From Octopus vulgaris (Eukaryota): a stretch of DNA of 64,000 nucleotides. A model generated the notes under the pieces. It had not been told where the DNA came from and searched no databases. It was given only the letters and a program-made list of their open reading frames with translations. Positions 8,780 through 52,675 of this stretch are shown here, piece after piece; position 1 is the first letter of the stretch, and each line of letters starts with the position of its first letter. The stretch lies in assembly GCA_951406725.2 (NCBI GenBank), contig OX597814.1, forward strand, positions 85,560,001 to 85,624,000. Reading direction: 5' to 3'. A program made the position numbers and the translations under genes.

Positions 8780-8920
8780 CCGGAGTAAACACATAAATGT
8801 GAAACAAGGTGGAAAAAAAGAGTACTCAAATACCAGGGGTAGAATAATATGCTTTATTTAAAAGCAGCAGATATTCAACAAAAGCTTTTGTTGAATTTCT
8901 GCTGCTATTAAATAAGTATA
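8780..8920. repeat. asymmetric mini-foldback element in (TA)n, copy 1
   Basis: Hairpin 8847-8920 centred on caaaag|cttttg, with an unpaired extension at 8780-8846. The same element occurs inverted at 30610-30752. Confidence 0.85.
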
Positions 8921-9051
8921 TATATATATATATATATATATATATATATATATATATATATATGTAGGTCCCGGGTTGAGTCGGAGTTAACCACAGTAAA
9001 TAAGGTACTCAATAAATAAGGTACTCAGTAAATAAGGTACTTTTGACAGCC

Positions 9052-9102
9052 AGCTTCCTGAAGATTTCATCTGAATGAAACAGTTCTAGTCCTGTAGAAG
9101 CT
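9052..9102 (+). ncRNA. type I hammerhead ribozyme motif in a ~160-bp non-coding insert
   Basis: agcttc-CTGAAGA-tttcatctgaat-GAA-acag-ttctagtc-ctgt-A-gaagct. Stem I is 6 bp, stem III 4 bp, cleavage triplet GUA. Stem II is weak. Confidence 0.65.
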
Positions 9103-9713
9103 CCTTCTATAAAATAAAATATATATACATATATATATATATATATATATATATATATACGACGAGTTTCTTTCAGTTTCAGTCTACCAAATCCACTCAC
9201 AAGGCTTTGGTTGGCCCGAGGCTATAGAAGAAGACACTTGCCTAAGGTGTCATGCAGTGGGACTGAACCCGGAACCATGTGGTTGAGAAGCAAGCTTCTT
9301 ACCACACAGCCATACCTGCGTCTATTGATATAACATCCTGGGAAGGGAGCTACACCAACGATACATTGCCTGAGACTGACGTAACCAAGTTGTAGGAGGA
9401 ACTACATTTATGAATGCCGATACTCCATAAATTAGTGCAGATTATATACCTATTTAAGTCCATAATTTATATATTATAATTGTCATTTAATGTACACGCC
9501 CCTTTATAATACTCTCGTGCTAGCGAAAACACTATGCATGGTTAAACATGCGCGTGTTTAAATATAGATGCACGTGCCAAACCATATGCAGACATGCGTC
9601 TGTGTATTTAGACTCTGCCTCGTATAGTTGTTTGCACGTGTAGTTAAATAGACATGGAATTCTATGAGTGACGTACGCGTCATGTATAATCTGGAATTGC
9701 GTAAATGTTATAC

Positions 9714-10150
9714 TCTTTTACTCTTTTACTTGTTTCAGTCATTTGACTGTGGCCATGCTGGAGCACCTCCTTTAGTCGAGCAAATTGACCCCAGGACTTA
9801 TTCTTTGTAAGCCTAGTACTTATTCTATCGTTCTCTTTTGCCGAACCGCTAAGTTACGGGGACGTAAACACACCAGCATCGGTTGTCAAGCGATGTTGGG
9901 GGACAATCACAGACACAAACATATACACGCACACACACATACATACATACATATATATATATATATATATATATATATACATATATACGACGGGCTTCTT
10001 TCAGTTTCCGTCTACCAAATCCACTCACAAGGCTTTGGTCGGCCCGAAGCTATAGTAAAAGACACTTGCCCAAGGTGCCACGCAGTGGGACTGAACCCGG
10101 AATCATGTGGTTGGTAAGCAAGTTACTTACCACACAGCCACTCCTACGCC
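9714..10150 (-). mobile_element. full-length SINE family A (tRNA-derived head, internal CA/TA microsatellite, AG-rich tail)
   Basis: Minus strand reads ggcgtaggagtggctgtgtggtaag...ccgggttcagtccc (A/B-box-like). Near-identical copies lie at 19238-19660 and 43860-44255. Confidence 0.9.
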
Positions 10151-49125: not shown

Positions 49126-50146
49126 AATAAAAATACATCTAAAATGTTAGTTTGGTTATATTTATATACATTAAAAATATATTTTAATGCATTTATGTCA
49201 AGTAACTCTAAAATTAAAAATTCTATATACCAGTGTAAAATTATTACTCATAATAAAGTACAATTTTACATTGGAAGCACGTCGTTACAGTTATCTAAAA
49301 GAATTTCTATCCATTACTCAACATTTAGGGATAGGAATAAACGTAACAGTACAGGGCTCAGTAAATTAATTTGGGATCTAAAATACCACAATGAACAATT
49401 TAATTTAGAATGGTTGATTCTCTCAATCTCGATATCTTATGACAAAGGCAAGGAATTGTGTCTTCTCTGTAATTCTGAACTATTTTTCATTATTTTTTCT
49501 AAAAATCCCCTAGTAAACACGGGTATAGAGCGTGCATACCGATGTAAACATTGGCAAAACACACCTTTAGTTCATATAAGTAATCTCTATCATTATATAT
49601 AATGTAAACATTAATTTTCTTTTTATATTTAATATTCACTAAAAAAATACATGTTTTCCTAGTTTAAAGGTTTTATTTAATATACATATACTCATATACT
49701 TCTCATTAATTTAACTTTTCCTTATTTTATCGCCACTCTTTCTATAGGCTACTTCTGACGTTATATCATATAACGTTTTTTCAAACAAAATTAATAGCGT
49801 TCAGTAAATCACTATACATATCCATCATTTTCTGTTAAAATGTCTTATTGACGAGTTTCATTTCTTCACTTCCCTGAAGAGATTACATTGTTTTACATCA
49901 TTTATTCCTTTGGAATAATACCAGTGATATCTTCGAAACATGTGTCGGAAGTAAAAGTATTTGAATTACACCTGCGTTAAACTCTATTTATTTATATATC
50001 ATACAAAAAAAATTCACTTAAACCCGAAATTTCTACCTTTAAAAATAAGGAGATATACCTCTTTACTTGTGTGATTTTTGCTACCCTTGTAACAGTTTAT
50101 ATATTTTTTCCGTATTAATTGTTAAGGGAAAATACACACATCTAAA
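49125..50146 (+). mobile_element. second Naiad-like PLE 3' fragment (GIY-YIG, 3' UTR with hammerhead) ending in (TA)n
   Basis: SIYQCKI...FYIGST...KRISIHYSTF...STGLSKLIWDLK...EW.IL...CLLCNSE...LVN...RCKH (stop at 49602) parallels the 22641-23816 endonuclease. Confidence 0.88.
49868..49952 (+). ncRNA. type I hammerhead ribozyme
   Basis: acttcc-CTGAAGA-gat...atcttc-GAAAC-atgt-GTC-ggaagt. Homolog of 17591-17673. Confidence 0.78.
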
Positions 50147-50309
50147 TATATATATATATATATATATATATATATATATATATATATATATATATATATA
50201 TATATATATACACATACACACATATATATATGTATGTATATATAGTCCTAGCTTGTATGTATATATATATACATACACACACATATATATATATATGTAT
50301 GTATATATA

Positions 50310-51615
50310 GTCCTAGCTTGATTTACGCGTTCGTTATCACAACCTCGTTTAGGCTTAGCTGCCCTTCCTATTTGTTTTCATTGTCTTGTTTGCGTTACCA
50401 ATTTTGATCCTCTGCAAAATCCCAAATTTTATTTAATTTGCTTTGCGGGAGTAATTGCTTTATCGAAAGCGTATATTGTTCTTAAATGCTCGAAATACGA
50501 GACTAGAAAAACAGTCAACAACTGATGAAGAGTCGTTCTCTATGTTTGTTTTGTTTTCCATTTGTTGTTTGATGTATTTGTGATTAGTACTTTTTTGTTG
50601 TACTCGTTTCACGACGTCCTTTGCCCACATATGTATATATACGCAGAGATGTAAGTATGTACCTATACGTATATATATATATATATATATATATATATAT
50701 ATATATATACATACTATTCATATTATTATATGATTGAACACCAAGCATCCTCTTCCAAGTATGTTTTATGTTAATAATTCTGATGCGCACTCCATACGAT
50801 GTTTTTACTCTTTCGTTTTTCTTTCTCTTATTCTTTTATCTCCTCTTCTCCCACTATTCTATCGTATTACTTTGTCACTTTCTCTCCCTCACTCCTCCTC
50901 ACTTGCTCACGTGGCTCCCACGTGACCATCGGCCATATTTCTTTCTTTCCCTCCATTGTAGCTGCAACAAGGAAGACGTATTCTTGTTTGTCCCCTGTTC
51001 TAGCTTGACTTACGCGTTCGCCATCACAACCTCGTTTAAGATTAGCAGCCCTTCCTGTTTGTTTTCACTGTCCTGTTTGTGTTACCAATTTTGACCTGGA
51101 TAATCCCGAATTTTATTTAATTTGCCTTGCAGGAGCAAGTGTTTTATCGAAAGCTTATATTATTAAATACTCGAAATACGAAACTAGAAAAACAGCCAAC
51201 AACTGATAAAGGGTCGTTCTTTATGTTTGTTTTGTTTTCCATTTGTGTCTTTCGTTGTTCGAAAGAATAGTTCATGTTCGATTGTACTCGTGCTTCGTAC
51301 TTTTTTGTTGTAAATGTTTCATGACGTCCTGTGCCCACATATACATACTTACATACATACATACATACATACACACACACATATATATATAGATATAGAT
51401 ATAGATATGTATGTATATATATATATATATATATATATATATATATTTCACGTAAACCCGAAGGACAGGAAGCAAACATGAACACGTCTTCCTTGTTCCA
51501 GCTACAATGGAGAGAAAGAAAGAAAGATGGCCGATGGTCACGTGTGAGCCACGTGAGCAAGTGATGAGGAGTGAGGAGTGAAGGAGAGAGAGAGAGTGAC
51601 AAAGTAATAGGATGT
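50310..51615. repeat. stack of related non-coding repeats between (TA)n tracts
   Basis: 50310-50630 and about 50998-51340 are diverged direct repeats. 51465-51615 is an inverted homolog of 50860-51000. Confidence 0.85.
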
Positions 51616-51696
51616 ATATATATATACATGTATATATATATATATATATATATATATATATATATATATATACATATATATACATATATATATATA

Positions 51697-52675
51697 TAAT
51701 ATAATAATAAGAGTAAATAATTTCTATAAAGGCTTTTAAAAAAACCCCAATTATTTACTGGTAGAATTCGGTATGTAAATATAGCCGATTACCGGCAGGA
51801 ACTTCTGTAAAGTTCAGTATATATATTGTATATAAGAAAAAGGGACAGGCAAACAGGTTGCTTGACCGCATACCGAAAAAATAGAAATAGCAGTCAAGAA
51901 TGCTTATTTCTATCAAAGTTGGACTCCAGGCACGACAAACCCTGTAATTCACATATGCAAAACAGAAGGAATAGATAACGAAAACGAAGTCTGTTGGTTA
52001 TCTGTGAACATCATGTTTCTGGATTATAAACATATTGAATATATATTTTTCATATATATTTTTGATATATATTTCATATACATTGCATATATATTTCACA
52101 TCCTTCTTCAGCACAGCTTTCCATTGAAAAAGATTTATCATAGATTTATCAAATGCTACGTACCTCAAACCTTCTGACCATGCGACATCAAAATATTTGA
52201 GGAAAGTGAGCAAAAGCTAAACCTACATAGACGTTTGAATTCGTAAATCTTCCCTCCAAAATTTTGCCATGCGCACCACAAAAATAGTTCCATAAGATTG
52301 GGAACTATTGGGTTGTCATAATGGAGTGAAAAATCCAAATAGTAATATAATAATAAGAGTAAATAATTTCTATAAAGGCTTTTAAAAAAACCCCAATTAT
52401 TTACTGGTAGAATTCGGTATGTAAATATAGCCGATTACCGGCAGGAACTTCTGTAAAGTTCAGTATATATATTGTATATAAGAAAAAGGGACAGGCAAAC
52501 AGGTTGCTTGACCGCATACCGAAAAAATAGAAATAGCAGTCAAGAATGCTTATTTCTATCAAAGTTGGACTCCAGGCACGACAAACCCTGTAATTCACAT
52601 ATGCAAAACAGAAGGAATAGATAACGAAAACGAAGTCTGTTGGTTATCTGTTTGCCTGTCCCTTTTTCTTATATA
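51697..52675 (-). mobile_element. non-coding 1.5-mer tandem element (309-bp direct repeats, 646-bp period) with a 28-bp inverted tip, in (TA)n
   Basis: 51697-52005 appears identical to 52343-52651. 52648-52675 is the reverse complement of 52475-52502. The strand is inferred from the geometry. Confidence 0.8.

Follow-up and report, generated by a model that had tools for sequence, protein, structure and literature searches.

Asymmetric foldback inserts in (TA)n tracts of Octopus vulgaris and their probable relation to Hydra-clade Penelope-like elements

Introduction

What process places folded, lopsided inserts into (TA)n microsatellites of the Octopus vulgaris genome? The question is raised by a 64,000-nucleotide stretch (contig OX597814.1, positions 85,560,001 to 85,624,000, here called the window; 36.7% GC, with many microsatellites), in which six TA-bounded inserts were noticed. 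The initial annotation ascribed them to a Penelope-like element (PLE) whose reverse transcriptase (RT) and GIY-YIG endonuclease (EN) target (TA)n and prime from both strands, and considered this an undescribed system. We find that the pattern is real and is largely a known PLE footprint, left by new Hydra families, to which we add regularities that are modestly new and testable. It is fairly probable that the inserts are footprints of (TA)n-targeting PLEs (two of the Hydra clade, two probably so and two unassigned) in which both nicked strands primed RT separately, from a distal and a proximal start.

Much of this anatomy has been described. Craig et al. (2021; PMC8557442) report that Hydra PLEs target (TA)n, have a copy that is inverted and 5'-truncated, and bear a tail on one side. 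Their listing includes Hydra-1_Obim, an Octopus bimaculoides family, and their supplement records the inverted 5'-truncated copy for Penelope-13_HM. The description as an undescribed system thus does not hold, since these features are all published for PLEs, octopus Hydra included. The same authors name the origin of the inverted structures, the tails and the microsatellite preference as open (PMC8557442).

Results

Two Hydra-Clade Inserts

Insert 21246-24104 consists of two head-to-head, 5'-truncated copies of an RT-GIY-YIG open reading frame (ORF) with their 3' ends outward. The ORF encodes RT followed by a C-terminal GIY-YIG domain, aligns to positions 320-706 of a Hydra profile (independent E-value, iE, 1e-158) and gives a weak Pfam GIY-YIG match (E=0.046). 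It carries CSCRNKELC (the CxCX5C linker), CGLCDME (CxxC by the conserved E) and CPH (CxH by the conserved N) at invariant columns; the linker and the CxxC/CxH motifs define the Hydra clade (PMC8557442). The window copy is itself 5'-truncated; its 38 closest full-length homologs have DKT/S in 38/38 cases and RWK/R in 36/38. Judging from its motifs, predicted hammerhead ribozyme and (TA)n insertion, this insert is a Hydra-clade PLE.

The two arms differ in content. The short arm holds 136 nt of RT (22641-22776) that the long arm lacks, and the long arm holds 64 nt missing from the short one. Because RT is uninterrupted across 22640/22641 in a contig of run X15, this position is an inversion joint. 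Many copies of the family occur in run X1 (8366 contigs), where its 3' end (21250) abuts TA in 33 and one other opposite-strand joint is present among the 15 listed. The raw-read runs X23 and X24 hold few copies (28 and 73 reads). Between 76 and 91% of the words sampled from 21246-22776 occur in 20 runs under 12 organism codes. Almost none occur in X23, which is labelled the same as X1, reflecting either a patchy distribution or loose labels. In X24, the 60-nt tail occurs as a tandem repeat.

A self-foldback was looked for in insert 17394-17846 and none was found. Its head-to-head structure appears only against the 77%-identical copy at 49150-50145: the left 285 nt correspond to the inverted 3' end and the right 160 nt to a sense piece from farther upstream, and about 250 nt are absent from between the two. 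As in 21246, the arms are mutually exclusive in content. The insert is a fragment without RT that combines a Hydra-type EN C-terminus, a hammerhead motif and (TA)n boundaries, features by which it too is classified as a Hydra PLE.

The proposal that two of the six inserts are GIY-YIG PLEs is thus confirmed for 21246 and 17394, both placed in the Hydra clade by motifs and hammerhead. The accompanying statement that the inserts stem from five unrelated sequences fails: two belong to Hydra families whose ENs share about 35% identity, and a third is probably Hydra as well.

An Rfam scan at gathering thresholds returned no hits in the window, so the hammerhead calls come from a purpose-made pattern scan. 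It found five motifs, against none in 30 shuffles: two in the arms of 21246, one in 17394, one in 8964-9118 and one at 27146. The three that lie in the six inserts face outward, towards TA. The motif at 27116-27146 (minus strand) has no adjoining TA.

Foldbacks at TA Edges

Asymmetric foldbacks at (TA)n edges are real in five of the six inserts. The single layout claimed for all six therefore holds apart from 17394, which is head-to-head without overlap. Matching inverted repeats at both termini, as expected of miniature inverted-repeat transposable elements (MITEs), occur in 0/6 inserts; each has one terminus without a partner. The short arm was said to end at a TA-like motif that blends into the microsatellite. 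This is apparent at 51699 (6 nt) and 21246 (3 nt), weak at 8780 and 30610 (0-1 nt, with ATAT past one mismatch), and not borne out for 30832 and 17394.

Foldbacks were expected to be enriched in (TA)n over other microsatellites, as they proved to be. In the window, 62 of 88 TA edges were testable and 144 other microsatellite edges served as controls. Foldback tips lie at 6/62 TA edges (five genuine, one low-complexity) and 1/144 others (low-complexity), a raw Fisher p of 0.003 in a post hoc test whose five genuine hits represent four families. G001, a long-contig assembly of another animal's DNA that is rich in Hydra-like loci, was sampled in 74 regions (793 kb of 12 Mb) picked for TA tracts, ribozyme motifs or Hydra matches. 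There, foldback tips lie at 17/288 TA edges versus 3/312 other edges (p=0.0009), and 5 of the 17 are symmetric elements. Symmetric foldbacks in TA include L136 229-702, by eye the GIY-YIG C-terminus of a canonical PLE, and L133 15004-15283, by eye a MITE-like element with terminal inverted repeats (TIRs).

Two End Classes Flank a Conserved Motif

We compared 92 Hydra-like loci related to the window families. TA lies downstream of 56 of 130 ribozyme cores, and the distance from the cut to (TA)n is bimodal: 28 ends fall at 30-59 nt (proximal) and 23 at 80-118 nt (distal), with five outliers, among them the 17394 family at about 200 nt. Between the two ends lies a motif of the GCTC-N-GAGC-ACT type (GCTC..GAGCACT), which accordingly is present in 22 of the 23 distal ends and in none of the proximal ones. 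It occurs downstream of the ribozyme in 33/48 distinct loci, against 255/2000 background windows, mostly 33-53 nt from the cut.

A motif model (R1) trained on 26 loci outside the window ranks the tail of 21246 first among window matches (E=0.013). The motif at 30671-30718 is third (E=0.72) and that at 8812-8857 thirteenth (E=7.9); their local E-values are 0.0056 and 0.017. The R1 training set was chosen for complementarity and is invariant, and gives no covariation signal for the predicted pairing; compensatory first pairs of the predicted tail hairpin occur only in the window copies. The motif can be recognized by eye in 3-4 of six published Hydra consensus sequences.

The two kinds of end are found together. 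Across six family searches in G001, 8/9 resolved head-to-head pairs are distal+proximal, one is proximal+proximal and none is distal+distal; one more is unresolved. In 5/8 of the distal+proximal pairs, as in 21246, the short arm carries sequence missing from the long arm. Several head-to-head inserts in G001 are only 100-250 nt long, ORF-less and plainly tips of Hydra families.

Overlap of the element with TA exceeds expectation. At 21 junctions with known template continuation it averages 2.8 nt versus 0.9 expected (0/20,000 draws reached the observed sum), and at least 3 nt overlap at 12/21 junctions versus 1.7 expected. These 21, some of which are not Hydra 3' ends, were kept from 36 rows; the 15 dropped (duplicate, low-complexity, symmetric or TA-to-TA) had a higher mean, about 4.7. 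Two sources of this overlap are conceivable: annealing of the primer, or a cut by EN at a TA site within the element.

Short Inserts

The 8780 family (8780-8916 and 30610-30752) is probably made of Hydra 3' tips. Its arms (32/105 and 36/107 nt), with the motif 39 nt from the centre, match both Hydra end modes, by a criterion derived here and unpublished. Neither insert contains an ORF or a hammerhead, as expected if the arms start at or after the cleavage site. The centre lies near the expected ribozyme cut and might derive from a cleaved end. A general rule that the foldback centre marks the ribozyme cut is not supported: of 11 truncated arms in G001, only two begin no more than 5 nt from the cut, and one of these (L185) begins exactly at it. 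Within each 8780-family copy, both arms carry a 2-nt variant absent from the other copy. Probes from this family had no match in viral, metagenome or genome contigs or in the supplement of Craig et al.; the viral contigs searched hold no Hydra relatives.

Inserts 30832 and 51699 are not counted as PLE members because they have no ribozyme, motif or protein match. In 30832, the pattern scan, motif model and Hydra profile revealed no hammerhead, tail motif or coding match. In 51699 there was likewise no hammerhead or tail motif, and Pfam on six frames plus the Hydra profile gave no protein match; one of its six frames, searched against 1.8 billion proteins, had a single match, repetitive and unrelated. 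Three Naiad consensus sequences from octopus, compared at their 3' ends by eye and by short probes, matched neither insert. The layout of 51699 is nonetheless PLE-like, with a partial tandem (pseudo-long terminal repeat, pLTR) and an inverted 5' piece in a microsatellite; its inverted tip measures 22 nt (28 nt counting TA).

Short foldbacks were predicted to map to PLE 3' ends and not to MITEs, which is the case in G001 and probable for 8780 and 30610. The suggested mobilization of non-coding partners fares less well: such partners are known elsewhere, but most short foldbacks in G001 are extreme 5' truncations of coding families. A candidate PLE-mobilized partner resembling a short interspersed element (SINE) is a tandem unit of about 380 nt that contains tRNA-Thr and has no hammerhead, in G001 (L118 3884-4377, L147 2273-2749 and L098 1017-2200).

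Feature Coordinates and Neighboring Sequences

Insert 8780 and its neighbor at 8964-9118 break up a SINE-like repeat within its TA tract; at 9709-10145, the two halves of that repeat adjoin. The interruption is the one case seen of the (TA)n splitting put forward for the system. A weak match to the Hydra GIY-YIG profile at 63271-63472 (minus strand, iE 0.002) is probably a decayed copy. Directly upstream of the Hydra fragment at 49150-50145 lies a decayed mariner-like transposase with helix-turn-helix matches (48348-49150). A 76-bp inverted pair (27283-27358 and 28300-28374, 98.7% identical, about 1 kb apart) has no TA bounds.

Table 1. Inserts and component features in the window (coordinates are window positions; a dot marks features without strand).
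Position	Strand	Feature	Remarks
8780..8916		Insert 8780	Arms 105/32 nt; spacer absent; (TA)n-bounded
8780..8884	-	Long arm, 105 nt	Probable Hydra 3' tip; tail motif at 8812-8857
8885..8916	+	Short inverted arm, 32 nt	No spacer; centre AAGCTT
8964..9118	+	Further TA-bounded hammerhead insert	No foldback; ends ~22-32 nt past cut; overlooked in the initial annotation
17394..17846		Insert 17394	Head-to-head pieces without overlap
17394..17678	-	3' end, second Hydra family	Complete hammerhead motif at 17596-17668
17685..17846	+	Inverted non-overlapping piece, GIY-YIG C-terminus, same family	65% amino acid identity to ORF at 49039; profile iE 0.005
21246..24104		Insert 21246	Arms 1331 nt, 99.7% identical; spacer 136 nt; overhang 64 nt
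21246..22640	-	Long arm of 5'-truncated Hydra PLE	RT end, thumb, CxCX5C linker, GIY-YIG, 3' untranslated region; ends at distal site in (TA)n
21246..21309	-	64-nt tail	On long arm only
21270..21318	-	Conserved tail motif, here CCTC..GAGG-TCTCT	Predicted hairpin; top window match of R1, E=0.013
21350..21400	-	Predicted type I hammerhead motif, U4C variant	Pattern scan
22641..24104	+	Short tail-less arm	Ends at proximal site; TA overlap 3 nt
24017..24067	+	Predicted short-arm hammerhead motif, U4C variant	
30610..30752		Insert 30610, second copy of 8780 family	Arms 107/36 nt; 87% identity to 8780
30610..30645	-	Short inverted arm, 36 nt	Centre AAGCTT
30646..30752	+	Long arm, 107 nt	Motif ACTC..GAGT at 30671-30718
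30832..31108	.	Asymmetric foldback in (TA)n	Arms ~90 nt, 85% identical; overhang ~85 nt
49150..50145	+	Sister copy of 17394 family, reference	GIY-YIG; hammerhead near 49872; ends in TA
51697..52669	.	Insert 51699, 1.5 tandem units	Period 646 nt; direct repeats 300 nt; TA overlap 6 nt

Discussion

Proposed Mechanism

What the sequences themselves display is the insert anatomy, two classes of end with the motif between them, the joining of distal with proximal ends, and an excess of microhomology. The enzymatic steps that we infer behind these inserts would run as follows. The PLE protein would bind near the conserved GCTC..GAGCACT motif, and its GIY-YIG domain would nick both strands of the self-complementary (TA)n. 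One nicked 3' end would start cDNA about 80-118 nt past the ribozyme site, yielding the arm with the tail, and the other would start about 30-59 nt past the site, at a UA-rich stretch, aided by a few base pairs. Both cDNAs would stop early, and microhomology of 2-5 nt would link them head to head. The extent of each cDNA would set the scale of the insert (30 nt to 1.3 kb) and determine whether the arms overlap.

Because the arms are mutually exclusive in content (21246, 17394 and 5/8 G001 pairs), neither can be a copy of the other, which suggests two separately templated cDNAs. Two primings are favored because PAc, a related protein from another PLE, has two internal starts in vitro and extends both strands (PMC11167929). 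Of the mechanism in the initial annotation, the targeting of (TA)n by a GIY-YIG PLE stands, and priming from both strands is the best reading, one we hold to be rather probable.

Several points weigh against this account. The enzymology behind it is that of PAc, a Poseidon protein and not a Hydra element, and the PAc start sites are not homologous to the target (PMC11167929). Craig et al. ascribe the tail to EN resolution of an intermediate (PMC8557442). The TA overlap could equally mark an EN cut in the element's own DNA, and is only 0-1 nt at 8/21 junctions and at 8780 and 30610. Overlapping arms require two RNAs or a tandem RNA, which is an assumption. The support from G001 comes from a different animal and hand-picked regions. 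For 8780 and 30610, no parent was found in the contigs or supplement searched, and the motif matches are not significant window-wide; 30832 and 51699 have neither ribozyme nor motif, and overhangs of about 85 and 136 nt, as they have, misfit Hydra tails.

Alternative Explanations

A single distal priming might be followed by fold-back of the cDNA or a template switch, with EN trimming the second strand at the element's TA-like site. Palindromes at inverted junctions have been interpreted as self-priming (PMC3846280) and the tail as EN resolution (PMC8557442), and the TA overlap is compatible with an EN site. The zero-spacer palindromes at 8780 and 30610 fit a fold-back, as does the nested tip at 51699 with its 4-nt junction microhomology. 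A fold-back copy, however, cannot contain what its template lacks, and such content is present in 21246 (136 nt), 17394 and 5/8 G001 pairs. We therefore regard this route as unlikely overall, although it could still apply to the nested subset. Another possibility is that PLE machinery copies the short foldbacks (8780 and 30610, perhaps also 30832 and 51699) whole, as fixed non-autonomous families. The 8780-family copies do share a common centre and have near-equal arm lengths, 51699 is a non-coding partial tandem, the tRNA-Thr unit of G001 occurs in head-to-head copies and can end against TA at two sites separated by about 108 nt, and non-autonomous Chlamys PLEs are already described (PMC8557442). 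Copy-specific variants common to both arms speak against whole copying in the 8780 family, though this is one event and could be arm-to-arm conversion, and the G001 equivalents are truncations of coding families with scattered centres; we consider this explanation quite improbable.

Helentron/HINE-like elements have asymmetric inverted repeats, and inserts of the 30832/51699 type might be derivatives of these or of MITEs that merely sit in TA tracts. TIR-like symmetric elements do occur in TA tracts of G001 (L133) and 30832 has no PLE marker. Given that no insert has matching repeats at both termini and that 8780 and 30610 fit Hydra spacing and motif, the MITE reading was rejected, and a DNA-transposon origin appears very unlikely even for this type. 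Assembly or library chimeras might be suspected from the 99.7% identity of the 1.3-kb arms, the window's own junction being spanned by no contig among those listed. Yet the flanks are unfolded, the ends fall in the two end classes of the family, the two arms are not alike in content, and other assemblies (L079, L088 and L090) show the same layout. Artefact was rejected on these grounds and has hardly any likelihood. Several prokaryote-labelled assemblies (L079-L092) hold animal-type PLE DNA, most likely from host contamination; the 492-kb contig that includes L080 has complex inverted repeats.

Relation to Known Systems

Hydra and Naiad are already reported to target (TA)n, and the literature likewise covers inverted copies, tails, palindromic junctions, non-autonomous partners and a Hydra family from octopus (PMC8557442; PMC11167929; PMC13282606; bioRxiv 10.64898/2026.07.22.740005; PMC3846280; PMC7229834; PMC9977147; PMC3649969). 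Our inserts resemble Hydra-clade PLEs in the C-terminal GIY-YIG, the CxCX5C and CxxC/CxH motifs, the type I hammerhead, (TA)n, the inverted 5'-truncated copy and the one-ended tail (PMC8557442). The window families are distinct from the published Hydra-1_Obim in a comparison by eye, and their tails measure about 55-70 nt compared with 30-40 nt in published Hydra (PMC8557442). The accessible portion of Craig et al. does not mention the motif, the fixed end spacing, the distal+proximal pairing or the TA microhomology. A literature search, with Repbase, picture-only figures and most subscription papers outside its scope, likewise returned nothing on the motif, the end pairing or PLE twin priming.

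In vitro, PAc, a Poseidon PLE protein from Anolis, nicks both strands, extends them and starts RT at two internal positions (Frangieh et al., 2024; PMC11167929). The likeness lies in the cutting and extension of both strands of AT-rich DNA, a predicted dimer, and two internal RT starts that define the tail. In PAc, however, the ribozyme is dispensable and start sites lack target homology (PMC11167929), whereas in Hydra the ends lie at fixed distances from the ribozyme site and overlap TA more than expected. Non-autonomous PLE partners at microsatellites are also described (PMC8557442; PMC9977147), with inserts of median 128 bp (PMC9977147). Such partners (Chlamys-N4_cRei, MRC1 and non-LTR retrozymes) are short, non-coding, microsatellite-targeted or tandem, and mobilized by PLEs or proposed to be so; the best candidate in the window is 51699. 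Cephalopod Naiad PLEs share the (TA)n target, the inverted and tandem layout and the absence of a canonical hammerhead; unlike in Hydra, their EN is N-terminal.

In L1 twin priming, reportedly described by Ostertag and Kazazian in 2001, the second target strand is said to prime internally, so that a head-to-head inversion arises whose joint shows microhomology. Insert 17394 and the non-overlapping G001 pairs fit this scheme. The internal priming sites of L1 are variable and its arms barely overlap, whereas in Hydra the second site is mostly fixed and overlap reaches 1.3 kb.

Implications

Tentatively, twin priming might be programmed in Hydra. The GCTC..GAGCACT RNA element would set two flanking RT starts, each nicked (TA)n strand would anneal to a UA stretch of the RNA in a telomerase-like manner, each start would give one arm, ribozyme-cleaved RNA would be usable as template, and tRNA-derived partner RNAs would share the route. 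If true, a ribozyme-cleaved template would account for the fixed centre of the 8780 family. The two fixed ends with the motif between them, the presence of one end of each kind and the TA overlap make an open question of PLE biology testable with defined RNA mutants. Spacing and motif together also offer a way to recognize ORF-less Hydra fragments that pipelines would label as MITEs or unknown repeats.

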